Source: Clostridium sp. CAG:417 (GTDB lineage Bacteria > Bacillota_I > Bacilli_A > RF39 > UBA660). From it: a DNA stretch of 64,000 bases. Location of the stretch: the NCBI GenBank assembly GCA_000432835.1, contig FR890371.1, forward strand, positions 62,915 to 126,914. Direction: 5' to 3'. The notes under the pieces were generated by a model. It did no database searches. It had not been told where the DNA came from and saw only the letters and a program-made list of their open reading frames with translations. Shown piece after piece: positions 49,526 to 63,373 of this stretch. The position numbers were made by a program, and so were the translations under genes. Numbering within the stretch: the stretch's first letter is position 1; every line of letters starts with the position of its first letter.

Positions 49526-50612
49526 AGAAATAAAAACAATGGATGAGAGAAAAAATAAGTTAATCAATTTAGGTAAGAAGCAGGGATATATTACTTATGA
49601 ACAACTTGCTGATGAGTTAAAAGGATTAGATATTGATAGTGATGTTTTAGATGACCTTTATAATTCCTTGGTTGAAGTGGGTATTGAAATAGTAGCAGAA
49701 GATGGTAGCAGTGATGGTGATGATGGTAGTGATATTACTCAAGATATATCAGTTGAAGAGTTAACTTTATCAAAAGATGTTAAAATCAATGACCCTGTTA
49801 GAATGTATTTAAAAGAAATTGGTCGTATTAACTTACTTACATCAGATGAGGAGTTTGAATATGCTAGAAGGGCTATTGATGGAGATGAAGAAGCAAAGAA
49901 AATGCTTGCTGAATCAAATTTAAGATTAGTTGTTTCTATTGCTAAACGTTATGTAGGACGTGGTATGTTATTTCTTGATCTTATTCAAGAGGGAAATATT
50001 GGACTTATGAAGGCAGTAGATAAGTTTGATCCAACTAAAGGATATAAGTTTTCAACTTACGCTACTTGGTGGATAAGACAAGCTATAACTCGTGCTATTG
50101 CAGATCAAGCAAGAACTATCAGAGTTCCTGTTCATATGGTTGAAACAATCAATAAATTATCTCGTGTTCAAAGACAATTAACACAAGAGTTAAATCGTGA
50201 ACCTACAGATGAAGAAATCGCTAAAAAATTAGATATTCCAGTAGAAAAAGTAAGAGAAGTATATAAAATAAGTCAAGATCCTGTATCATTAGAAACACCA
50301 ATTGGTGAGGAAGAAGATTCACATCTTGGAGATTTCTTGCCAGATGAGAGAACAATGGGACCAGAAGAATTTACAACGCAAGAAATGTTAAAAGAAGAGT
50401 TAGATGGTGTCTTACTTACCTTGACTGATCGTGAAGAAAAAGTTCTTCGCCTTCGTTTTGGACTTGATGACGGTCAGTGTAGAACACTAGAAGAAGTAGG
50501 CCAAATCTTTGGAGTTACTAGAGAACGTATTCGTCAAATTGAAGCTAAGGCTTTAAGAAAATTAAGACATCCATCACGTTCAAGAAAATTAAAGGATTTC
50601 ATGACTGACTAA
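49518..50612 (+). CDS. rpoD: RNA polymerase sigma factor RpoD/SigA
   Basis: Regions 1.2-4 ([50 protein letters not shown]). Overlaps dnaG by 8 nt. Confidence 0.95.
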
Positions 50613-51316: not shown

Positions 51317-51400
51317 CACTTTTATTAGAATTGTTTAATCTTTTATATAGAATATTTTATTATTGTCTGATATAATTAATTAGAATAGAAAGGTGATTTG

Positions 51401-54034
51401 ATGAAATACGTTTATTTATTTAGTGAAGGTAATAAAAATATGAGGGAAATTCTAGGTGGTAAGGGTGCAAACCTTGCCGAAATGACTTCTCTAGGATTGC
51501 CAGTGCCACAAGGTTTTACGGTATCAACTGATGCTTGCCTTAGCTACTATAATAATGGAGAAAAGATAATACCAGAAATTGAGACAGAAATTTTTTCTAA
51601 ATTAGAAGAATTAGAAAAAATTACAGGTAAAAAGTTTGGAGATCTTTCTAATCCACTTTTAGTATCTGTTAGAAGCGGAGCAAGAGTTTCAATGCCTGGA
51701 ATGATGGACACTGTTTTGAATTTAGGAATGAATGATGCTATATGTGATAATTTAGAAAAAACTTTGGATAATCCAAGATTTGCTTTAGATAGTTATCGCA
51801 GATTAATTCAAATGTATAGTGATGTTGTTATGGGCTTTCCTAAGAGTAGTTTTGAAGGAGTTTTTGATAAATTTAAGGAAGATAAGGGCATAACCCTTGA
51901 TACTGAACTTTCAAATGATGATTTAAAAGAAATTATTAGACTTTATAAGAATGAATATTTAAAATTAGCAGGAGATAATTTTCCTAGTGATCCAAGGGTT
52001 CAATTGTTAGAGGCAGTTAAGGCTGTTTTTAGAAGTTGGAATACAGAAAGGGCAATTACTTATCGTAGATTAAATGATATTCCTTCTGATTGGGGAACAG
52101 CAGTTAATGTTCAACAAATGGTTTATGGAAATAGAGACAAAAATTCTGGTACTGGTGTTTGTTTTACAAGGAATCCGGCAACAGGGGACAAAAAGTTGTT
52201 TGGCGAATATCTAATGAATGCTCAAGGAGAAGATGTAGTTGCTGGTATTAGAACACCACAGGATATAAGTACATTAAAAGATGTAATGCCAGAGTGTTAT
52301 GAACAATTTCAAAATATTTGTAATGTGCTTGAAAATCACTATCATGATATGCAAGATATGGAATTTACTATTGAAGATGGTAAACTTTATATGTTACAAA
52401 CTAGAAATGGTAAAAGAACTGCAAAAGCAGCAATTAAGATTGCAGTTGATTTAGTTCATGAAGGACAAATTAGTATAAATGAAGCTTTGATGATGGTTGA
52501 TGCTAAAGACCTTGATCAGTTGTTACATCCTGTTTTTAATGAAGATGATTTAAAAAATAAAGAGGTTATTGCGACTGGTCTTGCGGCATCTCCTGGAGCA
52601 GCTACTGGTAAATTGTATTTTAGTGCGGAAGATGTGTTAAATGCTCATAAGGCAGGGGAAAAAGATATTATTTTAGCGCGTGAAGAAACTTCTCCTGAAG
52701 ATATAGAAGGTATGAATGTAGCACATGGTATTTTAACTGTTAGAGGTGGTATGACATCTCATGCAGCTGTTGTTGCTCGTGGTATGGGAACTACTTGTGT
52801 AAGTGGATGTAGTAGTTTAATTGTTGATAGTAGTAATAAAACTTTACAAACGAGTGATGGTAGAGTTTATCATGAAGGAGACTATTTAAGTCTTGATGGT
52901 ACTAGTGGTAGGGTTTATAGCGGAAAAGTAGAGTTACTTGATGCTAAAATTAGTGGTGAATTTGAAGAGTTTATGAACTGGGCTGATAGCGTTAGAAAGC
53001 TTGAAGTAAGAGCTAATGCAGATAATCCTAGAGATGCGAGAGTAGCTCATAATTTTGGAGCTCAAGGTATAGGACTTTGTCGTACTGAGCATATGTTCTT
53101 TAGTGAAGAGAGAATCTTTAACTTTAGACGTATGATAATTGCGACGACTGAAGAGCAAAGAAAAGAAGCTCTTAGTAAAATTTTACCTTATCAAAGAGAG
53201 GACTTTGAAGGGTTATTTTCTGAGATGAATAATTTACCTGTTATCATTCGTTTCCTTGATCCACCACTTCATGAATTTTTACCACATACGGATAGTGAAA
53301 TGGAAGAATTAGCTAATAGTATGGGAGTAGCGTTTGATGTAATTAAAAATAAAGTTGAGAGTTTAAAGGAATTTAATCCAATGATGGGACACAGAGGATG
53401 TAGACTTGATGTTACTTATCCTGAGATTGCTAGAATGCAAACAAGAGCTGTTATTGAGGCCGCTATTAATGTTACTTTACGAGGATTCAAAGTTATTCCT
53501 GAAATTATGATTCCGCTTATTGGAGATATGAATGAGCTTAAATATGTCAAAAAATTAATTACTGATGAAGCTTCTAAGGTATTTGAAGAAAACAGGATGA
53601 GGATTGATTATAAAGTAGGAACAATGATAGAAATTCCTAGAGCAACACTTATTGCTGATGAGATTGCCAGTGAAGCTGAGTTCTTTAGTTTTGGTACTAA
53701 TGACTTAACTCAACTTACTTATGGTTTCTCTAGAGATGATGCTTCTAAATTCTTGAAGGATTATTATGATAAAAAGATATTCCTACATGATCCTTTCCAA
53801 TCTATAGATGAAGAGGGAGTTGGAAAGTTGGTTGATATTTCTGTTAGAAAATCAAGGACAGTTCGTAGAGACATTGAACTTGGTATTTGTGGAGAACATG
53901 GTGGAGATCCTAAATCTATCGATTTCTGTCATAGGGTAGGACTTAATTATGTTTCTTGTTCTCCTTATAGAGTTCCAGTTGCACGTTTAGCTGCTGCGCA
54001 AGCTGCGATTAGAAATAGTATTGATGTAATATAG
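51401..54034 (+). CDS. ppdK: Pyruvate, phosphate dikinase
   Basis: ATP-grasp N-domain (GGKGANLAEM), central phospho-His domain (GGMTSHAAVVARG) and PEP-utilising C-domain (RTEHMF, GTNDLTQ). The last 12 codons lie in a direct repeat; see the repeat features. Confidence 0.95.
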   Translation: MKYVYLFSEGNKNMREILGGKGANLAEMTSLGLPVPQGFTVSTDACLSYYNNGEKIIPEIETEIFSKLEELEKITGKKFGDLSNPLLVSVRSGARVSMPGMMDTVLNLGMNDAICDNLEKTLDNPRFALDSYRRLIQMYSDVVMGFPKSSFEGVFDKFKEDKGITLDTELSNDDLKEIIRLYKNEYLKLAGDNFPSDPRVQLLEAVKAVFRSWNTERAITYRRLNDIPSDWGTAVNVQQMVYGNRDKNSGTGVCFTRNPATGDKKLFGEYLMNAQGEDVVAGIRTPQDISTLKDVMPECYEQFQNICNVLENHYHDMQDMEFTIEDGKLYMLQTRNGKRTAKAAIKIAVDLVHEGQISINEALMMVDAKDLDQLLHPVFNEDDLKNKEVIATGLAASPGAATGKLYFSAEDVLNAHKAGEKDIILAREETSPEDIEGMNVAHGILTVRGGMTSHAAVVARGMGTTCVSGCSSLIVDSSNKTLQTSDGRVYHEGDYLSLDGTSGRVYSGKVELLDAKISGEFEEFMNWADSVRKLEVRANADNPRDARVAHNFGAQGIGLCRTEHMFFSEERIFNFRRMIIATTEEQRKEALSKILPYQREDFEGLFSEMNNLPVIIRFLDPPLHEFLPHTDSEMEELANSMGVAFDVIKNKVESLKEFNPMMGHRGCRLDVTYPEIARMQTRAVIEAAINVTLRGFKVIPEIMIPLIGDMNELKYVKKLITDEASKVFEENRMRIDYKVGTMIEIPRATLIADEIASEAEFFSFGTNDLTQLTYGFSRDDASKFLKDYYDKKIFLHDPFQSIDEEGVGKLVDISVRKSRTVRRDIELGICGEHGGDPKSIDFCHRVGLNYVSCSPYRVPVARLAAAQAAIRNSIDVI

Positions 54035-54046
54035 AGTAAAAGTAGA
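53999..54046 (+). repeat. Direct repeat copy 1 (48 bp, 47/48 identical to 63326..63373), spanning the last 12 codons and stop of ppdK
   Basis: caaGctgcgattagaaatagtattgatgtaatatagagtaaaagtaga occurs twice. Candidate attL-like junction. Confidence 0.85.
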
Positions 54047-54353
54047 AAAAATAACAAAAATGTTTTTAGGTGGCATAATCATTATGAATGACGATATTAT
54101 AAGGTATAGAATGATATACCTGAATGTAAAAATATAGTCATTAAAAATCACTTATTCCTGATGTTTATATATAATTTTAAGACTGAGATGACTTTTATGT
54201 CGCAAAGCTCAGTCTTTTTATGTGAAAAATATATATGTGCGATAAGTTGTTGGAAAATTAAAAAATGGAATTAATATATACAAAATGTAAGTTAATGAAT
54301 TTATCATAATAATCAAGAATTGATTTGTAAGACGTTTTAGATTTTTAATATAG

Positions 54354-54489
54354 GATGATGTATCAGATAAACTTGGTTTGTTTGGTTATTGTAAAAGAAG
54401 AATAATAGCAAGATATGAAAAAGAAGATAGAATCCCAAAAGATGAAAGATTAATATAAATAGCAAATATTTTAAATGTAAGTTTTAATT
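54354..54489 (+). pseudogene. Fragment of an XRE-family HTH regulator, missing helix 1 and the start codon and carrying an internal stop
   Basis: In-frame translation ...ISDKLGLFGYCKRRIIARYEKEDRIPKDERLI*IANILNVSFN matches the C-terminal half of Cro/C1-type HTH domains (IskwE.G...P....L..iA.il.VS.d). Confidence 0.4.
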
Positions 54490-54909
54490 AAATTAAAAAA
54501 TATGATTATAACAATCTAATAGGCTTAATTTATACTTTAATGTGGTTAAAAGAATTAATTCTCAATTATTATATTAAAGATTTTGATGATGATGAAGCAA
54601 TTATATGTATGGTAGATTCAAATAAGATATCTCCATTTTAAAAAGAATTGAGTCAGTAATTTCTTGTCAAATACTTGGAAGAGATAAAAGATATATTAAA
54701 AAATATATAATTGGAACAATTAAATTATACAATAAAAATAATAGACAAAGTAAACTTTTTACAAAAAATGTGGTATAACATTGTTGATAAAATTTTCGGG
54801 TGAATGATACAATGAAGAAGGAAAATATTCTAAATTTATTTATAGGTAATATTATAAATATTATTATTACTGTCATACCTCCTATTGCAATATTTAGTTT
54901 TTATAATGA

Positions 54910-55038
54910 ATTGGTCGTATTAACTTACTTACATTAGATGAGGAGTTTGAATACTCTAGAAGAACTATCAATAGAGATGAAGAAGCAAAGGGAATGCTTG
55001 CTGAATCAAATTTAAGATTAGTTGTTTCTATTGCTAAA
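54910..55038 (+). pseudogene. 129-bp partial duplicate of rpoD (nt 49818..49946, sigma region 1.2/2.1), about 92% identical, with no start codon
   Basis: 119/129 identical positions by manual alignment. The encoded peptide [43 protein letters not shown] matches the host [43 protein letters not shown]. The two sequences diverge immediately after. Confidence 0.8.
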
Positions 55039-55464
55039 CATAATACGAGAATAGATTATATTGGACATATTGCTGATACTCTTGGAGTATCTTTAGAACA
55101 ATTATTTGCAGAAATATTAAGAAGTTTCGTTTAGAAAAATATAATAAGTTTAATAAGAAAAACTTAAATACATCTATTAATCCATATTCTACTGAGAATA
55201 TTTCTGCATTTTTAGATTATAATCACAATTTTTATAGGAAATTTGAAAGTGATAATGAGATGATACTTTTAGAAAAACTAGTTAAATTATCTATTATTTT
55301 AGATAAAAAATTGAATGATTTTATTAGATAACTAATTGTTAAAAAAGCTTTGACTTTCCAGGAAAAAAATGGTAAGATATGCCTCAAAAAGAGGAGTATC
55401 ATTAATAAATTTAAAATTACAAAAATATTCTTTTTTACATTTTAAATGAAAAGGAGGAAATAAT

Positions 55465-56109
55465 GTGTTTGAAACGGAGGTTAGATTTTATTTTAATAAA
55501 AATGAATCTACAAAAATTATATCTTATTTAAAAAATATAGATTTGCTTTCTTTTGATGGTAGATTTTATGAGGTAACTCAACAATTTGATCATCCAGAAA
55601 TTTCTAAGTCTTTTTATTCATTGCAAGTTGATGGCAGATTTAGAGTTAGATTGTCAAAAGGTGAATTGTTTAGTAAGTTAAAAGTATCATGGAAACAGCG
55701 TTTAAAAAAAGATAGAATTGATAATAAAATTCATAGGGAAAGGGAAGTTGAAATTAATTTAAATCCAAATGAGTATGATAATTTAATGTATATATTGAAT
55801 GAAGTTATTGATATGAAACTTGTAGAGAGTTATGAAAGATATAGGAGTGCTTTTTCTAATAAAGAAGTAGAAATAGTTGTGGATGAGTATCCATTTGCTA
55901 CAGCTATTGAGATTGAAAGCAAAACTGATGACTCTATATCATTAAATTTGTGGATAGACAGATTGGGTTTAAAATTAGAGGATGCTTATAGTTTATCTTG
56001 GGATGATAAATATAATGAATTATGTAAAGAACAAGGGAAAACAGCAACTAAGTTTGTTACATTTGAATCTGATATGCCAGAGTTAAAAAATTGTATTTTT
56101 GGAGAATAA
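55465..56109 (+). CDS. CYTH-like triphosphate tunnel metalloenzyme (class IV adenylyl cyclase/triphosphatase fold)
   Basis: N-terminal ExExR (FETEVRF), an R-rich strand (GRFRVRLSKGE), REREVEINL, and a C-terminal ATAIEIESK acidic strand, matching the CYTH motif pattern. GGAGG RBS. Confidence 0.5.
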   Translation: MFETEVRFYFNKNESTKIISYLKNIDLLSFDGRFYEVTQQFDHPEISKSFYSLQVDGRFRVRLSKGELFSKLKVSWKQRLKKDRIDNKIHREREVEINLNPNEYDNLMYILNEVIDMKLVESYERYRSAFSNKEVEIVVDEYPFATAIEIESKTDDSISLNLWIDRLGLKLEDAYSLSWDDKYNELCKEQGKTATKFVTFESDMPELKNCIFGE

Positions 56110-56110
56110 A

Positions 56111-56980
56111 ATGGAAAGTATAAAGAAAATTGAAAATGGTAATCTTAATGATGTATATAAATTAGTTCTAAATAATAAAAAGTATATTTTAAGAGTGACA
56201 AAATTTAATAATGATTGTGAGATAAATACATTGCTAATTTTAAAAAAATATAATTTAAATGTGCCAAATCTGTTAGCTCATTTTAGTGTTTATAATAAAA
56301 ATGTAATGTTATTAGATTATATTGAAGGGAGTAATCCTCTGAAAATTGATACTAAATTTATTACTGAACTTTTAAAACAGTTAAAAAAACTTCATAATAT
56401 TCCATATGAACATTTGGAAGAAAAATCAATAAATACAATAGAAAATTTTGAAAGATTGAGTGAATATTATGTTGTAAGCAAAGAATCAAATTTTTTAAAG
56501 CAAAAAATTCATTTAATTAATTCTATTTTGGAAGATGTTAGAGATATACCTTTTGATAAAATACCAAAATGCATAGTACATTCTGACATAAAAAAAGAGA
56601 ATGTGCTAGTAAATAATAATATTGTTTACATAATTGATTTTGGAAATAGTTATATAGGAAATAGGCTAATAGATTTAGTTAGAATAATTATGTGGTTTTT
56701 TTTGAAAGAAAATGATTTTAATATTGACGAAATAGAAAACAGTTTTAAAGTATATTTTGAAAATAATCATCTTATTGATTTAGAATATAATAATCTTAGT
56801 AAAATAATAAAATTTTGTGTTATTTATAATTTAATTAAAGATGTTTATTTATTTGAAAAAGGATTCTTATCTGAAAATTATGTTGTTAAAAATGATACAA
56901 AATGGTTAAATGCATTGGAAAATGAACAATTATTAGAGAAAGTAAAGGAGGCTTTAAATAATGCTAGTAGATATTCATAA
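56111..56980 (+). CDS. APH/choline-kinase-like small-molecule phosphotransferase (protein-kinase-like fold)
   Basis: Gly-rich loop region (GNLNDVYKL), catalytic VHSDIKKENVL (HxDxxxxN) and IIDFGNS (DFG-like). Confidence 0.6.
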   Translation: MESIKKIENGNLNDVYKLVLNNKKYILRVTKFNNDCEINTLLILKKYNLNVPNLLAHFSVYNKNVMLLDYIEGSNPLKIDTKFITELLKQLKKLHNIPYEHLEEKSINTIENFERLSEYYVVSKESNFLKQKIHLINSILEDVRDIPFDKIPKCIVHSDIKKENVLVNNNIVYIIDFGNSYIGNRLIDLVRIIMWFFLKENDFNIDEIENSFKVYFENNHLIDLEYNNLSKIIKFCVIYNLIKDVYLFEKGFLSENYVVKNDTKWLNALENEQLLEKVKEALNNASRYS

Positions 56981-57752
56981 AAATAAAGATTTAAGGAATA
57001 TAGAGGTTAATAATATAGGAATTTGTGATTATAAATTGCCAATAATATTTAAAAATAAGAGCAATATTTTTCCTACTATTGCAACTATTACTTCTACAGT
57101 AGTTTTAGATAGGAACCTAAAAGGCGCTCACTTAAGTAGAATTTCTGAGGTTATTAATGATTCATTAATAAACAAAAACATTTCATTGGGTGATATTAAT
57201 GATATAACTAAAGAAGTTGCAGAAAGATCAGAAACTAAAGGTGCTAATTTAATATTATCATTCGATTTAATTAACAAAAGATTAACACCTGTATCTAAAA
57301 AGGATTCTTATTTATCTTCTAAAATTACAATAATTAGTGATATTTTTGATAAAAGTGTTAGCAATAAATTGATTGTAGAGACTGTTGGTACAATGCTTTG
57401 TCCATGTTCAAAAGCAATTTCTAAGTATGGTGCACATAATCAAATATGTAATTTAAAAGTTTCGTTAACAGGTAATATTGAAAGTATAGATGTTGAAAAA
57501 ATTATTGATATTATGGAACAACAATTTAGTTCACCTGTTTATAGTACTGTTAAAAGAGAAGATGAAAAATACATTACTGAAAAGGCTTATGAAAATCCTA
57601 AGTTTTCAGAAGACTTGATTAGAGATACTATAATAGCTATTCATAATTATTATTCTGCTTGCGATATAAGGGTAGAATTAGTCAACAATGAATCAATTCA
57701 TCAACATAATGTTTATGCAATGGGAGAACAAAATGCTGATTTTAACTCATAA
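56961..57752 (+). CDS. folE2: GTP cyclohydrolase FolE2/MptA family (GCYH-IB)
   Basis: KGAHLSRISE (the ..H.SRF motif), CPCSKAIS...GAHNQ and C-terminal NESIHQHNVYA (ESIHNHSAYA-like), diagnostic of FolE2/MptA. AAGGAGG RBS. Confidence 0.7.
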   Translation: MLVDIHKNKDLRNIEVNNIGICDYKLPIIFKNKSNIFPTIATITSTVVLDRNLKGAHLSRISEVINDSLINKNISLGDINDITKEVAERSETKGANLILSFDLINKRLTPVSKKDSYLSSKITIISDIFDKSVSNKLIVETVGTMLCPCSKAISKYGAHNQICNLKVSLTGNIESIDVEKIIDIMEQQFSSPVYSTVKREDEKYITEKAYENPKFSEDLIRDTIIAIHNYYSACDIRVELVNNESIHQHNVYAMGEQNADFNS

Positions 57753-58581
57753 AGAATTGTATGATAGATATTTAATCAATGTTGGTGATGACTCTAAAAA
57801 GGAAATTAAATCTATATTAACGGCTATGGAAAAACATGGCTATTCTAGTTTGATAAAACAAAAAATTAACATGAATGAAGAAACATTTTATTATTTATAT
57901 TCTTTGTTAATAAAATTAAAAGAAATATTTGATACAAGATATAACAATAGAAATGATTTAGAAATCTTTTTTGATTATGTATTACAAGGTATCGATAGTA
58001 TTCCAATTAACTTTTATGCTATTTTTTGTCCTGGTTATAATGATGATGGATACAAAGATAGGCTAGGTAAAACTACTACTACTAAAATACAAAAACTTTT
58101 TCAAATGAAACAATTATTAGATAAGGAGAATGTTTTACATAATATTCATTGTTTATATGCAGATATTTTTTTAGAGAATTGTGATGAACTTAAAAATCCA
58201 AATTGGGAAAAGGAATTAGAGGTTAATAAAAATCTATTTAAGGAATATGCCATTAAATATTTAGAATGTGCAGATATTGGTTTTTTATCAAGTTATTTTT
58301 CTGATAGTAAATATCAGAGAGGCTTTGTTGATTCTAGTATTATTAATGGTAATAATTATGAGTCATTTAGAAAATATAATAATAATTTTTATATGAAAAT
58401 GGGCTGGGATGATGCTAAAACAAAAGAACGTAATGATAAGTTATATACAATTTATAATATAATTGCTGAATATATTATCAATACAAAATCAAATGGTGTT
58501 TATTTACCGATGGAGAATATGTATGCACGAACTAAAGTGTTTACTAAGAAAAAAGTGAGTTCAATGTATTTTAAATTGTAG
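57733..58581 (+). CDS. Hypothetical protein (283 aa), unique to this operon
   Basis: Start at the ATG after GGGAGAA, overlapping folE2 by 20 nt (translationally coupled). No recognisable motif. Confidence 0.4.
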   Translation: MLILTHKELYDRYLINVGDDSKKEIKSILTAMEKHGYSSLIKQKINMNEETFYYLYSLLIKLKEIFDTRYNNRNDLEIFFDYVLQGIDSIPINFYAIFCPGYNDDGYKDRLGKTTTTKIQKLFQMKQLLDKENVLHNIHCLYADIFLENCDELKNPNWEKELEVNKNLFKEYAIKYLECADIGFLSSYFSDSKYQRGFVDSSIINGNNYESFRKYNNNFYMKMGWDDAKTKERNDKLYTIYNIIAEYIINTKSNGVYLPMENMYARTKVFTKKKVSSMYFKL

Positions 58582-58591
58582 AGGAGTAAAT

Positions 58592-60604
58592 ATGAATTAT
58601 AAAGAAAAAGGTAATCTGTTTTGTAAAGAAATAAATCAATTATTGGCAAATAAAAATGAATACTATGCTTTGGTTACTGGAGGTGGATTTGCTTATGATT
58701 CTGTAAAGTATTCGGATACTATACAGGGTGATTATGATTTTATGATAGTATATAAGGATGTTGAGCAATTAAATTCTTTAATAGAAGAATTAGAAAAAAT
58801 TCCATTTGATTTTGAAAAGAAATATTTAGTTTCTGATTTACATTTATTAAAAAGTAAAGTAATAGATATCATAAGATTAAGTGGTAAATATCGTGGTACC
58901 AAGAGTACTATTAACTTAGTAAACATAGAGTTAATTAAAAGAATAGCAAATTTGGAAACAAGAATGTCTTTAAAGAAAATTGCTCATAATAGAAATACTG
59001 GTCTGTTTTTTGCATATGGTTCTGATAATAGCAGAATAATTGTAAACTTTTTATCACCATCATTTGTTAGTAATGATGGTGAAGATCACTATATTCATTT
59101 AGATTTTTCTAATATTATTGTAGATAATAATATTTATTTTGGTATATTAGCAGATGCTATTTTAAAGGGTTTTAATAGTAATTATGATAATGTAGGCTTT
59201 AAGAAAGTACGTCAAAAGATGATAAAAAATATTAATAACTTTTTTAAAAATAATAAAATCGATAATAGTAATTATCTAAACTTGTATGCTAACAATATAT
59301 ATTTTCCAGAAAGTTTAAAAAGACAATTACTTGAAGAATTCAATAAATATGGTAAAAATGTTTTTGCAGAAAAAAATACTATATCTAATACAAAATATCC
59401 AATTATTTTTGCTGTTGATAATCCAATTAATAGAAAAATGAATCCATTTAATTTTATAAATAATAAAAGTTACAGATGTTCTTTTGATGATTATATTAAT
59501 GAAATGCAAAAAAATGAATATGATAGACAATATTTGCTAGACGCATTAGCTAAATTGTTTGGATATGTTGCTTTTTCGAATAGTAAATTAGAGGGTGATA
59601 ATTATATAGAAAATATCATATCTAAATTCAGTGTATATGGTAATAATGATTTGTATTTTGAAGGAATTGAAAAATATTCTGTTAATACTATTTTTGGTTC
59701 ATTTATTAATGATTTAAAAGTAAATAGATTTAAATATAACCCTATTTTATATAAAAATTATTTGCTAATGTTGTTAAGTTTTTTGTCATTTTATAATAAT
59801 AAGAATATTTTTGATATGTCCTTAAAATATGAAGTTAATGTTCAAAAATTGGTTAAACCTGAATTAGATAATACTAAAATGAATAGTAAAGTAATATTGA
59901 AGTTGTTTAATTTTGATGATATAGGTATGTATCATAATTATACATCAAAGGTTATGCCTGGATATACACAAACTGAATGTGATTTTTTAGAAAAAGTATT
60001 TATAGATAAAAAAGAGCCTGTTTTAGATATTATGTGTGGATATGGAAGAATAGCTAATGAATTAGTTAAAAGAAATTATAAAAATGTGTATGGCGTTGAT
60101 TTTTCTGGTTATTCTTTTTTGAATGTAGATAAGAATTTTATTTTTTCTAAAGATGATTTCTTTCATTATCGACCAGGTATATTATTTAAATATTTATATA
60201 GCTTATATAATTGTTATGAAAATAAGGAATATTTGAGAAAAGTAATCAATAAAATGGCAGAATTGTCTGCTGATAATGCTCTTGCTATTTTAGATGTTTT
60301 TAACAAAGAATGGCGAGATAAAATAGATCCTGAATTTTATAAATTGCTTTTTGATAGTTCTCCTGTAAAATTAGAAATTAGTAGGCATTATGATGATACA
60401 ACAGGCGTTGAAACAACTAAATATTTAAAAACAATGTCTGATAATGAACAAGAAGAATATAGTTTTTCTCAAAAGTTTTTTACACAGACTGAGATAGAGG
60501 AGTCTATAGATTATAAAAAATGGAATATAGATTTTTTTACATCTGCTGAGGTTGGATCAAGAAATAATAATCAGAAAAGAATTTTGGTTTTAAGGAGGCG
60601 ATAA
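58592..60604 (+). CDS. Two-domain protein: N-terminal nucleotidyltransferase (pol-beta-like) fold plus C-terminal class I SAM-dependent methyltransferase
   Basis: N-terminal LVTGGGFAYDSVKYSDTIQGDYDFMIV fits hG[GS]x(9-14)DhDh. C-terminal VLDIMCGYGRIANEL...VYGVDFS is SAM-MTase motif I plus the post-I acidic residue. Confidence 0.5.
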   Translation: MNYKEKGNLFCKEINQLLANKNEYYALVTGGGFAYDSVKYSDTIQGDYDFMIVYKDVEQLNSLIEELEKIPFDFEKKYLVSDLHLLKSKVIDIIRLSGKYRGTKSTINLVNIELIKRIANLETRMSLKKIAHNRNTGLFFAYGSDNSRIIVNFLSPSFVSNDGEDHYIHLDFSNIIVDNNIYFGILADAILKGFNSNYDNVGFKKVRQKMIKNINNFFKNNKIDNSNYLNLYANNIYFPESLKRQLLEEFNKYGKNVFAEKNTISNTKYPIIFAVDNPINRKMNPFNFINNKSYRCSFDDYINEMQKNEYDRQYLLDALAKLFGYVAFSNSKLEGDNYIENIISKFSVYGNNDLYFEGIEKYSVNTIFGSFINDLKVNRFKYNPILYKNYLLMLLSFLSFYNNKNIFDMSLKYEVNVQKLVKPELDNTKMNSKVILKLFNFDDIGMYHNYTSKVMPGYTQTECDFLEKVFIDKKEPVLDIMCGYGRIANELVKRNYKNVYGVDFSGYSFLNVDKNFIFSKDDFFHYRPGILFKYLYSLYNCYENKEYLRKVINKMAELSADNALAILDVFNKEWRDKIDPEFYKLLFDSSPVKLEISRHYDDTTGVETTKYLKTMSDNEQEEYSFSQKFFTQTEIEESIDYKKWNIDFFTSAEVGSRNNNQKRILVLRRR

Positions 60605-60606
60605 AT

Positions 60607-61143
60607 ATGTCAATTATAGCAATTGAAGGAAGTAACTGTAGTGGAAAGTCAACATTGATAGATTATTTAGTTAAATATTATAATTTTAAATCTTCAAAAT
60701 CAGTACCTGAGTGGTTTAGACCATATATACCTTTTGCAAGAGAATTACAACCTCAAATACAACGAAAAATATATGAGATAGGACATATTGCAGCGTACTA
60801 TGATGCACTAAAAGAAAAAAAATGTACTATTTTTGACCGTTGTTACTTTTCAACATATATTCGATTATCATATCAAGAAAGTAAAACTGTAAATGAGTGT
60901 GTAGATCAAATTGCTTCTTTTCACTATAAGCCTGATTTAATAATTGTTCTAACTGTTCCTAAAGAAATTATGGAGCAGAGGTTGGTAGAAAGGAATAAAC
61001 AGTTTAATCAGGATTTTTTTGAATATGAAAATTCTGTTTATTTACAATTATCACTCAAATATGATAACATTATATTAGTTGATAATAGTAAAAATATAAA
61101 ATTTTGTACGAATGAAATATTGAGAAAAATAAAAGGGAGATAA
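60607..61143 (+). CDS. Deoxynucleoside-kinase/thymidylate-kinase-like P-loop nucleoside (nucleotide) kinase
   Basis: IAIEGSNCSGKST P-loop in the dNK context (I.IEG..G.GKST), FDRCYFS (DR/ERS motif), and a lid/base-binding region. Confidence 0.6.
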   Translation: MSIIAIEGSNCSGKSTLIDYLVKYYNFKSSKSVPEWFRPYIPFARELQPQIQRKIYEIGHIAAYYDALKEKKCTIFDRCYFSTYIRLSYQESKTVNECVDQIASFHYKPDLIIVLTVPKEIMEQRLVERNKQFNQDFFEYENSVYLQLSLKYDNIILVDNSKNIKFCTNEILRKIKGR

Positions 61144-61146
61144 GTT

Positions 61147-62085
61147 ATGAATGATGTAAGAGAGCAATTGAAATATGTAGTGGAAAATAGTGTTTATGTA
61201 AAAATTAATTATACTCAATTAGATAATTTTATAAATAGTTTAGGAAAGCCAAATTATCGACATTGGTATAATTTTACTTCTTTAAATTTAAACGAAAAGG
61301 AAAAAATTATTTTAGCCTTTATAATAGAAAGTTTAAATTTTTGTTTTTGGCAAAAGCCAAAATTTAAAATTGAATATAAAGGTAATATTATAAAAGGGTC
61401 TGAGGCTTTATTTTATTCAATTATAAGAGAAGTAGAATCTAATAAAGATTTTTTAGATATAGAATTTTTAAATAAATTAACAAAAGATGATTTTGAAAAA
61501 ATATTTTATTCGCCTGATAGTATAATACCTTTATTCGATTTGAGATATGATCTTTTTAAAGATACTGTTAAAACAATGTATAATAAAGGACAGAGTTTTT
61601 TTGATGAATTGTTTAATAAGAAATCAGATGTTGATTTATTAAAGTATATTGTGTCAGAATTTAAGTATTTTGATGATAGTAGTATATATAAAGGTAAAAG
61701 AATAAAGTTTAACAAACGTGCTACTTTACTTGTTAATGACTTATATTATATGTCATCTACAATACATAATAATTTAAAAAATGTTGATAATTTAACAGGT
61801 TGTGCTGATTATGGTATACCAAGGACTTTAAGAACGTATGGGATTTTAGAATATAATGAGGAATTATCTAACATAATTGATAGTGAGATAGAGTTAAAGC
61901 ATGATAGTAATATGGAAATTGAAATTAGAGCTAATATGCTTTATGTATTAGAATTAATTAGAGAAAAATTAGAAAGTAAAGGTATTAAAATTAATTCTGT
62001 AGAATTAGATAATATTATTTGGCAGATGGGAACGAAGAAGAAAAATGTAAATCCATATCATCATACAATTACAATATTTTATTAG
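61147..62085 (+). CDS. qng1: Qng1/DUF2419-family protein (queuosine 5'-phosphate N-glycosylase/hydrolase homologue)
   Basis: Block-by-block similarity to human QNG1 (C9orf64): SLNFCFW vs TLNFSFW, KGKRIKFNKRATLLVNDL vs EGKRVSFYKRAQILVADT, GCADYGIPRTL vs FADYRLPQVL, EIEIRANMLYVLELIRE vs EVEIRGCSLWCVELIRD, C-terminal HHTITIFY vs HRIRCIYY. Confidence 0.65.
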   Translation: MNDVREQLKYVVENSVYVKINYTQLDNFINSLGKPNYRHWYNFTSLNLNEKEKIILAFIIESLNFCFWQKPKFKIEYKGNIIKGSEALFYSIIREVESNKDFLDIEFLNKLTKDDFEKIFYSPDSIIPLFDLRYDLFKDTVKTMYNKGQSFFDELFNKKSDVDLLKYIVSEFKYFDDSSIYKGKRIKFNKRATLLVNDLYYMSSTIHNNLKNVDNLTGCADYGIPRTLRTYGILEYNEELSNIIDSEIELKHDSNMEIEIRANMLYVLELIREKLESKGIKINSVELDNIIWQMGTKKKNVNPYHHTITIFY

Positions 62086-62423
62086 ATTCTATTATAAACT
62101 AAATTTTAGACAAGTTAGTAACCCACTATGATATTGACGGAGCCAATAATGAATTTGGGTAAAGGGAGTTTCCCTTTGAGGACCCACTTAGAGTAACAAA
62201 TTACAAAGTGTTATAACACAATAATGTTGTATAAAAATAACCATGTTGCTAAAAAGTGAAATGTGCCTCATACAGTAGACATCAATAAAAACCTATTTAA
62301 TAAAAATGTGGTAGAATACACTTCTGAAGGTGGTGTATTCTTATGATTTAAAAAGGAAAAAAGCATATTAAACATATTGATGAATTTAAAAAAATTAGAA
62401 ATGAACTTAAATATATTAACAAA

Positions 62424-62987
62424 ATGTGTGAAAAGTATAATGATAATATAAATTCAATAAATCACTATACTAAACCTGCAAATCTAGGAGATGGGTATGA
62501 TATTATAAGACCTATTCTATGGGATTATATAATTCAAATGGCGGTTGCAAATTCAGAAACACACAATATAATCCAGTTCTTAAGAGGTAAGGCTGAACTA
62601 TATGAGTCACAATTTTCTCAAAATGCATATTTTCACAGTATAGAAAGTTTTATTAACACTTTAAAAAATAGTAATAATTGTATTGTCGTTAATTTAGTTT
62701 CTAATTTAGAAACAAGAAAAAATAGAAATAGAATAAGATTTGAAAATGGTGGACATTATGTTTCTGATGATACTATGGACAAAATATATTCAAAAGACAT
62801 ATTTGAATATACAAAAACTGGCGAAAATTTTGGATATTTATTAGTTGCTGGTCAAACTATTCCAGTATATACTATTGTTAATGATAAAACACTTAACGAG
62901 ATTGCATTAAATAATTTTTTAGAATATAATGTCAATAGGGTAATAAAATATTACAATGATTTTAAGGAAGGAAAAACATGGAATTAA
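62424..62987 (+). CDS. Hypothetical protein, possibly the C-terminal part of a P-loop kinase-like fold. No ATG-initiated upstream extension.
   Basis: KNRNRIRF..GGHYVSDD is reminiscent of the lid region of adenylate/zeta-type kinases. Preceded by a TGgTAGAAT extended -10 and an AGAATACAC...GTGTATTCT hairpin in the 5' leader. Confidence 0.3.
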   Translation: MCEKYNDNINSINHYTKPANLGDGYDIIRPILWDYIIQMAVANSETHNIIQFLRGKAELYESQFSQNAYFHSIESFINTLKNSNNCIVVNLVSNLETRKNRNRIRFENGGHYVSDDTMDKIYSKDIFEYTKTGENFGYLLVAGQTIPVYTIVNDKTLNEIALNNFLEYNVNRVIKYYNDFKEGKTWN

Positions 62988-63277
62988 AAAAGATTCAAAA
63001 AGATGTTTGGCAGAATAAGTTAAACAAAGGATTTAATACAACAGATGTAAATAAAGAGTTTTGTTTATTATATGGAGAAGTTTCTGAAGCGTATGATGCT
63101 TGGAAAAAGAAAAAAGATGATTTGAATGAAGAATTAGCAGACATTGCTATTTACTTAATGGGTCTATCTGAAATGTTGGGTTTTGATTTAGCAGATGAAA
63201 TAGAGAAGAAAGTTTCTAAAAATGAAAAACGAGTATATAAAAATATAGATGGGGTTAATGTAAGAATAAGTGATTAA
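62978..63277 (+). CDS. MazG-like nucleoside triphosphate pyrophosphohydrolase (small all-alpha NTP-PPase)
   Basis: LYGEVSEAYDAWKK....EELADIAIYLMGLSEMLGFDLADEIEKK..KNEKRVY is the EExxE...ELADxxxY MazG/HisE-type signature. Confidence 0.6.
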   Translation: MELKKIQKDVWQNKLNKGFNTTDVNKEFCLLYGEVSEAYDAWKKKKDDLNEELADIAIYLMGLSEMLGFDLADEIEKKVSKNEKRVYKNIDGVNVRISD

Positions 63278-63325: not shown

Positions 63326-63373
63326 CAAACTGCGATTAGAAATAGTATTGATGTAATATAGAGTAAAAGTAGA
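63326..63373 (+). repeat. Direct repeat copy 2 (displaced native ppdK 3' end), followed by a terminator-like hairpin TTGTTTCTT-gaaaaa-AAGAAACAA
   Basis: 47/48 identity with 53999..54046. Still encodes ...TAIRNSIDVI* in frame. Candidate attR-like junction. Confidence 0.85.

Follow-up and report, generated by a model that had tools for sequence, protein, structure and literature searches.

A Conserved, Mobile Operon of Candidate GTP-Remodelling Enzymes in Clostridium sp. CAG:417

The Closest Described Systems

Pathways initiated by FolE2, i.e., GTP cyclohydrolase IB, begin with GTP and a T-fold cyclohydrolase, leading to folate or, via preQ0, to queuosine in tRNA, to Dpd modification of DNA, and to toyocamycin-type antibiotics. 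The subject of this article is an operon that likewise would seem to start with GTP and a T-fold cyclohydrolase. It occupies positions 55465-62085 of a 64,000-nucleotide (nt) stretch of DNA from Clostridium sp. CAG:417 (contig FR890371.1 of assembly GCA_000432835.1, positions 62,915 to 126,914), a stretch which is described here, at its full length, as the window. Among the seven products are a FolE2 homologue, a homologue of the N-glycosidase Qng1, a 670-amino-acid (aa) fusion protein, and a 282-aa protein that is termed here U282. The operon is real, conserved, and, as far as the tools employed can tell, undescribed, as well as being translationally coupled and horizontally mobile. Quite possibly, if short of probably, it represents a pathway complete in itself and not characterised before, by which GTP would be remodelled to give a nucleotide metabolite of guanine-like or pterin-like nature.

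Two further likenesses to the FolE2-initiated pathways can be seen. As in folate synthesis, where NudB has this role, a triphosphate-removing enzyme would come next, and the Qng1 family recognises compounds that the 7-deazaguanine branch produces. The island that carries the operon nevertheless lacks FolB, FolK, FolP, QueD, QueE, QueC, QueF, Tgt, DpdA, and phosphoribosyltransferases, with other Que and Dpd proteins absent from related cassettes too. Nor does it encode a transporter, and thus an initial annotation of this DNA, which had listed QueD/QueE/QueC, Tgt/DpdA, and a transporter as missing, was correct on this point. Related operons carrying U282 also can swap FolE2 for GTP cyclohydrolase II, which folate and queuosine pathways do not do.

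The queuosine-5'-monophosphate N-glycosidase Qng1 of queuosine salvage (DUF2419, C9orf64; e.g., that of Sphaerobacter thermophilus, 7U07; PMC9881137) and the Qng1 homologue of this operon belong to the same family, aligning over their full lengths, with catalytic and purine-reading residues kept. They differ in that an aromatic pocket has been replaced in the homologue, in that the cassette operon is without a Tgt or a transporter, and in that the cassette Qng1 is dispensable in some variants while being the only survivor in decayed ones. The changed pocket, together with the missing Tgt and transporter, suggests that the substrate probably is not queuosine phosphate.

A different kind of likeness is that to the puromycin (pur) and pseudouridimycin (pum) gene clusters and to operons combining viperin with a kinase. 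It is a likeness of logic, that is, of working on a free nucleotide, involving a Nudix-type pyrophosphatase, adenylate- or thymidylate-kinase-like enzymes, an amino-acid-attaching enzyme, an N-methyltransferase, and self-protection through nucleotide hydrolysis. The DegT aminotransferase portion of the likeness to nucleoside-antibiotic clusters is seen in U282 relatives only. Enzymes are not homologous beyond the superfamily level, however, and the cassette is without viperin, resistance acetyltransferase, or exporter. It also would begin with GTP ring-opening, versus the ribose oxidation or radical-SAM (S-adenosylmethionine) step of those systems.

The initial annotation had recognised no pathway in this gene set, and none was found here either, whether among Pfam, NCBIfam, PADLOC, PHROGs, Rfam, phage, plasmid, and IMG/VR collections or as a description of the set in the full-text literature. 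PADLOC 2.0 (5027 models) yielded only generic kinase matches, i.e., PD-T4-6, PDC-M51B, and VakA, with none for FolE2, U282, the fusion protein, Qng1, or the CYTH protein introduced below, and PHROGs yielded only generic kinase, MazG, and thymidylate-kinase matches. By tblastn against phages there was no match for the fusion protein, for U282, or for a 187-aa open reading frame (ORF) found downstream, and against 72,556 plasmids there was none for the fusion protein. Scans of IMG/VR with alignments of the fusion protein and of U282 found no relative. Rfam offered no riboswitch or cis element that could name a ligand, either in the island (E <= 1) or in 18 related loci (gathering scores).

The Operon and Its Recognisable Enzymes

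Nine ORFs exist on the + strand, of which seven are packed into 55465-62085, with two more found in 62424-63277. The seven, each of which can be given a family or fold at least in part, are as follows:

55465-56109, + strand: CYTH protein, i.e., a triphosphate tunnel metalloenzyme (TTM), 214 aa (profile match)
56099-56980, + strand: APH-fold small-molecule kinase, 293 aa (Pfam APH, 71.1 bits)
56961-57752, + strand: GTP cyclohydrolase IB (FolE2) homologue, 263 aa (Pfam GCHY-1, 216.8 bits)
57733-58581, + strand: U282, 282 aa, of an unannotated enzyme superfamily
58592-60604, + strand: 670-aa fusion protein, its N-terminal ~440 aa novel and its C-terminal ~220 aa a SAM methyltransferase
60607-61143, + strand: P-loop thymidylate-kinase-like (TMK-like) nucleoside-monophosphate (NMP) kinase, 178 aa (Pfam Thymidylate_kin, 54.6 bits; dNK, 31 bits)
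61147-62085, + strand: Qng1/DUF2419-type nucleoside-5'-monophosphate N-glycosidase homologue, 312 aa (Pfam Q_salvage, 186 bits)

The genes are tightly packed and partly overlapping, as had been annotated: the first three junctions are overlaps (11, 20, and 20 nt), and the next three are gaps (10, 2, and 3 nt); 338 nt separate the seventh gene from the last two ORFs. Such overlapping and abutting implies a single unit of transcription and translation. Profile searches ORF by ORF upheld, in essence, the annotated family calls of CYTH, APH, FolE2, TMK/dNK, Qng1, and, for the last of the nine ORFs, MazG.

The CYTH call is one that emerges from alignment rather than from the single sequence, which reaches only 17.6 bits in Pfam against a cut-off of 23.2. 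A profile of 14 orthologues instead matches the Saci_0718 TTM of Sulfolobus (E 6.6e-14) and, at ~1e-5, class IV (CyaB-type) adenylyl cyclases. The N-terminal ExExK motif, present here as ExExR, and the tunnel residues are invariant (E3, E5, R58, R60, R62, K77, E94, E96, D140, E149, and E151). By prediction, the protein acts on the triphosphate that the product of the cyclohydrolase carries, either cleaving or cyclising it. The APH kinase, which is present in every cassette copy, displays HxDxxxxN (HSDIKKEN) and DFG (IDFG) motifs. Its NCBIfam matches (homoserine kinase II, CotS, and APH(3')) all lie far under cut-off, and it has neither a sequence match in the PDB nor an informative subfamily.

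FolE2 shows ~37% identity over its full length to the N. gonorrhoeae enzyme (3D2O; E 7.5e-49) and keeps the motifs KGxHxSR, LCPxSK..Y.AHNQ, KRxDEKxxTE, and ESIHxHN, such that motif comparison reveals no visible change of the sort that neofunctionalisation might leave. As it misses the NCBIfam equivalog NF010200 (189.3 bits versus a cut-off of 215), it may be described as a divergent subfamily, one for which cyclohydrolase activity is predicted and which would supply the first committed step from GTP. The TMK-like protein similarly falls short of the NCBIfam dTMP kinase model (51 bits versus 83), matching PDB thymidylate kinase 2PBR (E 4.3e-11) and the PHROG thymidylate kinase (E 9.5e-19). By its sequence it is a member of the P-loop NMP-kinase family, with no specific NMP assigned.

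Conservation and Decay

Homologues of the fusion protein form 54 clusters among 5.8e9 proteins, none of them named, and the protein is found in 8 of 185,579 species-representative genomes. Seven of the eight carriers are gut or rumen metagenome-assembled genomes (MAGs) titled Bacilli, Tenericutes, Firmicutes, Bacillales, Erysipelotrichaceae, or, in one case, Muribaculaceae. The eighth, Bacterium D16-56 strain D16-56 (locus L013), is recorded as a strain, not as a MAG.

The order APH-FolE2-U282-fusion-TMK-Qng1 is kept across 13 related loci (L001-L013), at protein identities of 37-95% and in varied chromosomal contexts. All six genes are present in nine of the ten loci, each from gut or rumen Bacillota, that are long enough to show them all, with L013, lacking Qng1, as the exception; conservation of gene neighbourhood, which had been proposed as a check, thus is borne out. 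Qng1 accordingly belongs to the six-gene set, as annotated, but not to its deepest core, being absent from the most divergent variants, L013 and L014. CYTH is found in the clade of the window and in L003 and L004, and a NUDIX gene lies inside the cassette in L003, L004, and L014.

The flanks of L013 and L014 both include a Peptidase_U32 gene, with a Methyltransf_3 gene as well in L014. These flanks recall yrrMNO-type genes of tRNA/rRNA hydroxylation and methylation, a likeness that may be coincidence or may instead indicate a preferred insertion site.

Cassettes also decay, as seen in three independent states: L066/L067 (9644-10924), L070 (9881-10936), and L015 (7485-11197). In L066/67 and in L070/71 all that is left is a C-terminal fragment of TMK along with an intact Qng1. 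L015 instead keeps the 5' half, that is, APH-FolE2-U282 and the first 184 aa of the fusion protein, joined to a RecG-like C-terminus. The insertion site of L015, downstream of ftsW, is also that of L066. That solitary Qng1 genes might be independent housekeeping genes was considered and rejected, as the TMK remnants alongside mark them as decayed cassettes. That Qng1 has survived in this manner twice, with its TMK fragment, is the pattern to be expected of an orphaned gene for immunity or detoxification.

U282 and Its Superfamily

U282 is the signature gene of the operon. The initial annotation had described it as a unique protein of 283 aa; it consists instead of 282 aa, starting from 57733, and rather than being unique it defines a family. 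Pfam, NCBIfam, PHROGs, PADLOC, and PDB sequences hold no match. An AlphaFold model built with 15 homologues (pLDDT 90) predicts with high confidence a Rossmann fold of the class-I aminoacyl-tRNA synthetase (aaRS), cyclodipeptide-synthase (CDPS), or PvcA type; the HIGH and KMSKS motifs are absent, i.e., there is no class-I synthetase signature. Of the two structure predictions that had been called for, this one gave a fold class. That of the nucleotidyltransferase domain is considered below.

In being, by its model, a single Rossmann-type catalytic domain of ~200-300 aa, U282 is like CDPSs, PvcA/Dit1, and class-Ic aaRSs, and in doing without HIGH and KMSKS it is like CDPSs and PvcA particularly, with its relatives linked, in addition, to a tRNA gene and an aminoacyl-tRNA transferase. 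It is unlike all of these in having no detectable sequence similarity to them and in having invariant motifs of its own. These motifs are FCP[GS]Y (with an invariant Cys), D...EN, and R...E...R, the residues invariant across the superfamily being Q43, C99-P100, Y102, G112, E148-N149, S186, Y220, W225, R233, E261, and R266. The first-strand motif is occupied by a Cys, a putative equivalent of the catalytic Ser of CDPSs. Genomic partners differ too, as U282 is accompanied not by tailoring oxidases but by NMP kinases, CYTH, and GTP cyclohydrolases.

A profile search of 1.84e9 representative proteins gives the superfamily 87 members. Distant relatives, from Saccharibacteria, Paceibacterota, and Taylorbacteria, are fused to adenylate-kinase (ADK) domains or to DUF2156/LPG_synthase_C, the latter being the aminoacyl-tRNA-dependent transferase domain of MprF. 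Context look-ups together with a metagenome scan of 44 loci distinguish three operon architectures, in which NDK is nucleoside-diphosphate kinase:

Type A: ADK - tRNA - U282 - DUF2156 - DegT aminotransferase - [ADK+GTP cyclohydrolase II] - NTPase_I-T
Type B: FolE2 - CYTH - U282 (fused to ADK or not) - NDK - NUDIX
Type C: ADK-like - CYTH - U282 - ADK-like

A P-loop NMP kinase is beside or fused to U282 in most loci long enough to show neighbours, and 30 of the 44 loci from the metagenome scan have a match to CYTH directly upstream of that to U282. The GTP cyclohydrolase of these operons is either type IB or type II, with CYTH or NUDIX accompanying IB and CYTH absent with II. The product of type IB keeps its triphosphate, whereas GTP cyclohydrolase II itself removes pyrophosphate. 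Between the cassette FolE2 of Bacillota and that of type B, identity is no higher than with canonical FolE2 (31-34%), which suggests that they were recruited independently for the same activity. The relatives of U282 thus tie the pathway to aminoacyl-tRNA chemistry, to NMP kinases, to CYTH, and to FolE2 or GTP cyclohydrolase II.

Two observations concern the surroundings of type B operons. That of L016 adjoins an RT-16 RNA with an RVT_1 reverse transcriptase and a cluster including an AAA_5 ATPase (L016 4095-5436 and 47-3772), a setting that is defence-island-like. In both L016 and L024, a divergently transcribed gene for a 316-aa protein with a MazE/AbrB domain is conserved with the operon.

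Type A operons of candidate phyla are found in L018-L021, L026, L028, L030-L033, L035-L038, and L045-L047, in core-genome surroundings (GreA, ProRS, HisRS, and DnaJ), and as far as searched are undescribed. In 18 loci, almost every one of them of type A, U282 is preceded at a distance of 5-46 nt by a tRNA-Thr-like gene, which in type A sits between ADK and U282:

L018 7903-7976: tRNA-Thr-like gene
L021 7909-7982: tRNA-Thr-like gene
L030 7868-7942: tRNA-Thr-like gene
L032 7851-7924: tRNA-Thr-like gene
L036 7846-7918: tRNA-Thr-like gene
13 further loci: tRNA-Thr-like gene in each

The 441 kb of fetched DNA contain 29 tRNAs, 22 of them within 700 nt of U282. Most of the U282-linked genes are of one sequence family, with 14 of the 21 pairs of the cloverleaf showing compensatory changes. 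They keep G1-C72, C2-G71, and G35U36, with position 34 varying (A, C, or U); the anticodon loops are of 7-9 nt, and the D-loop, AGCAGAGA, is without GG. Aminoacyl-tRNA-dependent transferases of the MprF-C/DUF2156 and LysX types are known along with dedicated, non-proteinogenic tRNAs, for which the tRNA-Gly of Fem-type systems is a precedent. The embedded tRNA may similarly be a dedicated, possibly non-decoding tRNA-Thr, perhaps serving the adjacent DUF2156 transferase, which would fit both that neighbour and the aaRS/CDPS-like fold of U282. Candidate-phyla U282 thus resembles DUF2156-type systems in being fused or adjacent to DUF2156 and in having an atypical tRNA ahead of it, whereas the cassette of the window has neither. 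Unlike with MprF, moreover, the acceptor evidently is not a membrane lipid, as the partners of U282 are soluble nucleotide enzymes.

The Fusion Protein and the Qng1 Homologue

The fusion protein (model pLDDT 91) had been annotated as a nucleotidyltransferase joined to a SAM methyltransferase. The methyltransferase half of that description stands: the C-terminal domain has a class-I, Rossmann methyltransferase fold with a glycine-rich SAM motif I, and its nearest structures are the amine N-methyltransferases CcbJ, CypM, YunM, and CgnL along with the dTDP-aminosugar enzymes TylM1, DesVI, and CalS10. The nucleotidyltransferase half is less secure. The N-terminal 440 aa have no sequence or profile match, and the fold-search lists are filled by methyltransferases, with no nucleotidyltransferase match seen in them. 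What can be pointed to is an invariant GGG(30-32)...D47xD49...D92 on a predicted helix-strand-helix-strand core, motif and predicted secondary structure both fitting a putative Pol-beta nucleotidyltransferase.

The Qng1 homologue matches PF10343 (Q_salvage) with 186 bits, versus a cut-off of 25, and the solved StQng1 (7UK3, 7U07) with E 3.5e-38, so that residues could be mapped using positions given in the S. thermophilus structure paper (PMC9881137). Kept are the nucleophile Asp231, the helix-hairpin-helix (HhH) Lys199, Asn72, Tyr232, Glu267, His316, and the C-terminal Tyr323, as too are Asp298, the reader of the guanine 2-amino-4-oxo edge, and the stacking Trp302; the conservation of these catalytic and purine-recognition residues extends to the window protein plus 7 cassette orthologues. 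Not kept is the cyclopentenediol pocket of Tyr93/Trp94/Trp299, which has become Ser/(Glu or Asn)/(Asn or Ser) in every clade member aligned. With the catalytic site retained and the pocket altered, the enzyme probably still cleaves a guanine-type ribonucleoside 5'-phosphate, though one carrying a smaller, polar substituent near position 7 or 8. The altered pocket was considered as a cassette-specific trait, an idea which was rejected as the change is clade-wide; the clade itself appears to be cassette-derived.

The Island and Its Mobility

That the operon lies within an insertion had been claimed previously, and indeed a 9.3-kb insertion at the 3' end of ppdK is marked both by a 48-nt direct repeat (47/48 identical, at a spacing of 9327 nt) and by a shift in GC content, from 27.7% upstream in the window (1-54000) to 23.6% inside; the window as a whole is ~26-28% GC. 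Features of the island and its borders, together with the recombinases that accompany the cassette elsewhere, are these:

51398-54034: ppdK ORF
53999-54046: left copy of the 48-nt repeat, being the last 36 nt of ppdK plus 12 nt (repeat search)
55032-62256, + strand: transferable cassette module, with ~96% DNA identity to two other MAG contigs (L006, L007) whose flanks are unrelated to the window
62424-62987, + strand: 187-aa ORF, a passenger, without family match
62978-63277, + strand: MazG-like NTP pyrophosphohydrolase, 99 aa, a passenger (Pfam MazG-like, 34.4 bits; MazG, 27.4 bits; PHROG pyrophosphatase, E 2.5e-14)
63326-63373: right copy of the 48-nt repeat, the right insertion boundary (repeat search)
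L007 15559-17154, L008 13794-, L009 7209-, and L015 2701-4356: serine recombinases

Such a repeat, bracketing a low-GC insertion, resembles the att scar of an integrative element that has since decayed. The island retains neither an integrase nor a recombinase. The cassette can, however, be found elsewhere with such genes. By blastn versus the window, L006 1-6999 matches 55271-62256, while L007 6161-6243 matches 55032-55114 and L007 6488-13663 matches 55103-62256, with nothing else shared. In L007 the module sits between a Mob_Pre relaxase and a large serine recombinase, which suggests an integrative mobilisable element, and homologous large serine recombinases of 531-551 aa adjoin the cassette in four otherwise unrelated contexts (L007, L008, L009, and L015). 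The operon at 55465-62085 thus appears to be the cargo of a small integrative element, now decayed, of which only the target-site repeat at the ppdK 3' end persists.

From 54047 to 55464 there is gene debris only, including remnants of a helix-turn-helix (HTH) gene. Within this debris, 54897-55039 matches 49805-49947, a segment internal to rpoD, over 143 nt at 90% identity. The copy is fused, within ORF 54994-55134, to the tail of an HTH_3 gene, a gene that is intact in L007, and it may be recombination debris or instead the remnant of a sigma factor of the island; a sigma-70-like gene is present after the cassette in L014.

The two passengers had been annotated as part of the set, a status rejected here as both are missing from L001-L013, from the 96%-identical copies (L006 and L007), and hence from the conserved unit. 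The 187-aa ORF has no family match in Pfam, NCBIfam, PADLOC, or PHROGs. Together with the MazG-like gene that it overlaps it may constitute a separate two-gene module, and the MazG-like protein may be a local analogue of the NUDIX gene of other cassette variants. The 338-nt non-coding gap between Qng1 and these ORFs (62086-62423), in which homology to the 96%-identical copies ends, at 62256, may hold the junction of two cargo modules. It is without an Rfam match, tRNA, or convincing terminator, with promoter and terminator scans being uninformative in DNA of 24% GC.

A Possible Pathway and Its Alternatives

The initial annotation had suggested the building or dismantling of a modified purine nucleotide, and a pathway involving a guanine-type nucleotide is indeed the most economical reading. 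The best reading of the product, in turn, is a GTP-derived, acylated, N-methylated, nucleotide-like metabolite. FolE2, which is observed as an intact homologue, would open the imidazole ring of GTP and expel C8 as formate. CYTH would then trim or cyclise the triphosphate, giving an intermediate with a single phosphate, a step which is suggested by CYTH or NUDIX accompanying FolE2-type operons but being missing where GTP cyclohydrolase II is used. U282 would acylate the exposed amine or a side chain, the group attached probably being aminoacyl, with aminoacyl-tRNA or aminoacyl-adenylate as the possible donor. The C-terminus of the fusion protein would N-methylate an amine, its N-terminus possibly effecting nucleotidyl or phosphoryl transfer, and the APH- and TMK-type kinases would add phosphates, the TMK-type by converting monophosphate to diphosphate. 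The Qng1 homologue, lastly, would hydrolyse the N-glycosidic bond of a guanine-type 5'-monophosphate bearing a small polar substituent, not cyclopentenediol, releasing the base or destroying the nucleotide as a means of self-protection or recycling. More specifically, and here one is speculating, the exposed 5-amino group might be acylated and the ring then re-close to yield an 8-substituted guanine nucleotide, which would explain both the interchange of IB and II cyclohydrolases and the polar pocket of Qng1; dihydroneopterin monophosphate as common intermediate is equally possible. The end product, whether secreted or kept within the cell, most likely would serve as an antimetabolite or as an antiviral analogue of a nucleotide and not as a housekeeping cofactor, a role favoured in Firmicutes by the repeated survival of Qng1 alone and by the variability of the house-cleaning pyrophosphatases (CYTH, NUDIX, and MazG).

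A number of points weigh against this proposal. Every chemical step is read from family or fold, with the N-terminal domain of the fusion protein lacking a demonstrated fold match, with U282 lacking HIGH and KMSKS, and with any catalytic role for its Cys99 being a guess. FolE2, in whose sequence nothing points to a change of chemistry, may do no more than produce dihydroneopterin triphosphate, and that compound is not a nucleotide. Qng1, missing as it is from L013 and L014, cannot be an obligatory biosynthetic step. There is no exporter, regulator, or obvious effector present, nor is there a tRNA gene or DUF2156 gene in or near Bacillota cassettes, so that dependence on tRNA is extrapolated from relatives that are ~20-25% identical. 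The core-genome setting in candidate phyla, furthermore, argues for a housekeeping use there rather than for an antimetabolite.

A broader version of the proposal, somewhat doubtful as a whole, is that the cassette is a mobile, elaborated form of an ancient and undescribed type of pathway. U282-type enzymes, along with NMP kinases, a TTM, and a GTP cyclohydrolase of type IB or II, in this case would use aminoacyl-tRNA to build an acylated, GTP-derived nucleotide, with the candidate-phyla tRNA serving as a dedicated, non-decoding tRNA-Thr. Serine-recombinase elements of Firmicutes would have captured that pathway, with a kinase, the fusion of nucleotidyltransferase with N-methyltransferase, and a Qng1-derived immunity glycosidase all added there. 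Were this so, the nucleotide produced would be an antimetabolite or antiviral of a new class.

Among the rival explanations, anti-phage defence, which the initial annotation had left open, is unlikely. By this explanation infection would result, in a manner functionally analogous to prokaryotic viperins with companion kinases, in GTP being made into a toxic or chain-terminating analogue, or else in GTP being drained, with the kinases making the triphosphate form and with pyrophosphatase and glycosidase limiting self-harm. The cassette is, consistently, mobile-element cargo in variable regions, neighboured by MazEF and a patatin in L001 and by an MvaI/BcnI restriction enzyme in L003, while the related operon of L016 adjoins the reverse transcriptase with RT-16 RNA and the AAA_5 ATPase; the TMK-like kinase weakly matches PDC-M51B (E 4e-9) and VakA (E 3.5e-8) of PADLOC, and NMP kinase plus NDK in the L016 type imply an NTP product. 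Beyond generic kinases, however, 0 of 5027 PADLOC models match the cassette proteins, modules for sensing and for effect are both lacking, the evidence from defence-gene neighbours is anecdotal (~3/14 loci), absence of the cassette from phage, plasmid, and IMG/VR collections leaves an arms race without a signature, and candidate-phyla relatives are in core-genome operons beside GreA, ProRS, and HisRS. Less probable again is a pterin-type cofactor or pigment, for which FolE2 would make dihydroneopterin triphosphate, CYTH/NUDIX/MazG would dephosphorylate it, the two kinases would re-activate the side-chain alcohol of the pterin as a diphosphate, and the fusion protein would then produce a methylated pterin-nucleotide conjugate. 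FolE2 is canonical in all of its motifs, and Nudix or CYTH beside it mirrors the NudB step of folate synthesis. GTP cyclohydrolase II might substitute, as its product can rearrange to dihydroneopterin monophosphate, a hydroxyl kinase with a phosphate kinase would mimic pyrophosphokinase, and the Asp of Qng1 that reads a 2-amino-4-oxo edge could equally read that of a pterin. Yet the island is without homologues of FolB, FolK, FolP, PTPS, QueD, and sepiapterin reductase, and the aaRS-like enzyme and the tRNA/DUF2156 partners of its relatives are left unexplained. Nor is a cofactor pathway expected to be patchy, repeatedly decaying mobile cargo, and Qng1 proteins are ribonucleotide N-glycosidases (PMC9881137), whereas a pterin has no N-glycosidic ribose.

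Salvage or synthesis of queuosine or another 7-deazaguanine, to which the initial annotation had related one of several possible products, is weakened by these results and improbable. The APH kinase would in this case phosphorylate an imported derivative, Qng1 would free the base for insertion into tRNA, and FolE2 would feed the QueD/E/C of the host. The Qng1 homologue is after all a bona fide family member with all of the catalytic and 7-deazaguanine stacking and recognition residues, Qng1 needs a kinase to supply its 5'-monophosphate substrate (PMC9881137), preQ0 synthesis has FolE2 as its first enzyme (PMC5699537), and Qng1 persisting alone after decay is consistent with an independently useful salvage gene. 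Opposed to this, neither the island nor any of the related loci examined encodes QueD, QueE, QueC, QueF, Tgt, DpdA, or a transporter (for Tgt and transporter, including 10-kb flanks), the cyclopentenediol pocket (Y93, W94, and W299) is replaced, Qng1 itself is missing from L013 and L014, no preQ1 or other riboswitch is present, and U282, the fusion protein, TMK, and CYTH have no explanation. Still more improbable is a module of RNA or tRNA modification or repair, in which U282 would bind tRNA, as its structural relatives do, while a base or the ends of RNA would be the target of the kinases, nucleotidyltransferase, and methyltransferase, with FolE2 supplying a GTP-derived precursor of a base. 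U282 is indeed predicted to have the fold of tRNA-binding enzymes, its relatives adjoin a conserved atypical tRNA gene, and kinase plus nucleotidyltransferase plus methyltransferase recalls the logic of Pnkp/Hen1 repair; but the best methyltransferase matches are to small-molecule amine methyltransferases rather than to RNA methyltransferases, TMK- and APH-type kinases are small-molecule kinases, there is no RNA-binding domain, ligase, or transglycosylase, and no tRNA is near the Bacillota cassette. Very improbable, finally, is an island of antibiotic resistance or detoxification, with APH, nucleotidyltransferase, and methyltransferase modifying a drug or its target and with the rest as nucleotide-sanitising passengers. 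All three enzyme classes are classical resistance determinants, the cassette is mobile, and large-serine-recombinase elements often carry resistance genes in Firmicutes, but no NCBIfam resistance model is reached (APH(3') scores 28.9 bits versus a cut-off of 205), none of the 72,556 plasmids yields a match to the fusion protein, and the strict co-linearity and translational coupling of 6-7 genes, FolE2 and U282 included, at 37-95% identity argues for one pathway rather than for an assortment of resistance genes.

Implications

Should the proposal of GTP remodelling prove true, then U282 would represent a new enzyme family with a tRNA-synthetase-like fold, FolE2 would have a new use, that is, GTP ring-opening outside of the folate, flavin, and queuosine pathways, and the Qng1 fold would have a second function. 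At 6.6 kb the operon is small, and the matter is open to direct test. The proposal would also explain a conserved operon of candidate phyla, bacteria whose metabolism is poorly understood, with its embedded, atypical tRNA. Among Firmicutes, in turn, it would mean that a mobile and possibly antimicrobial or antiviral nucleotide metabolite is circulating within human, rodent, rabbit, and rumen guts.

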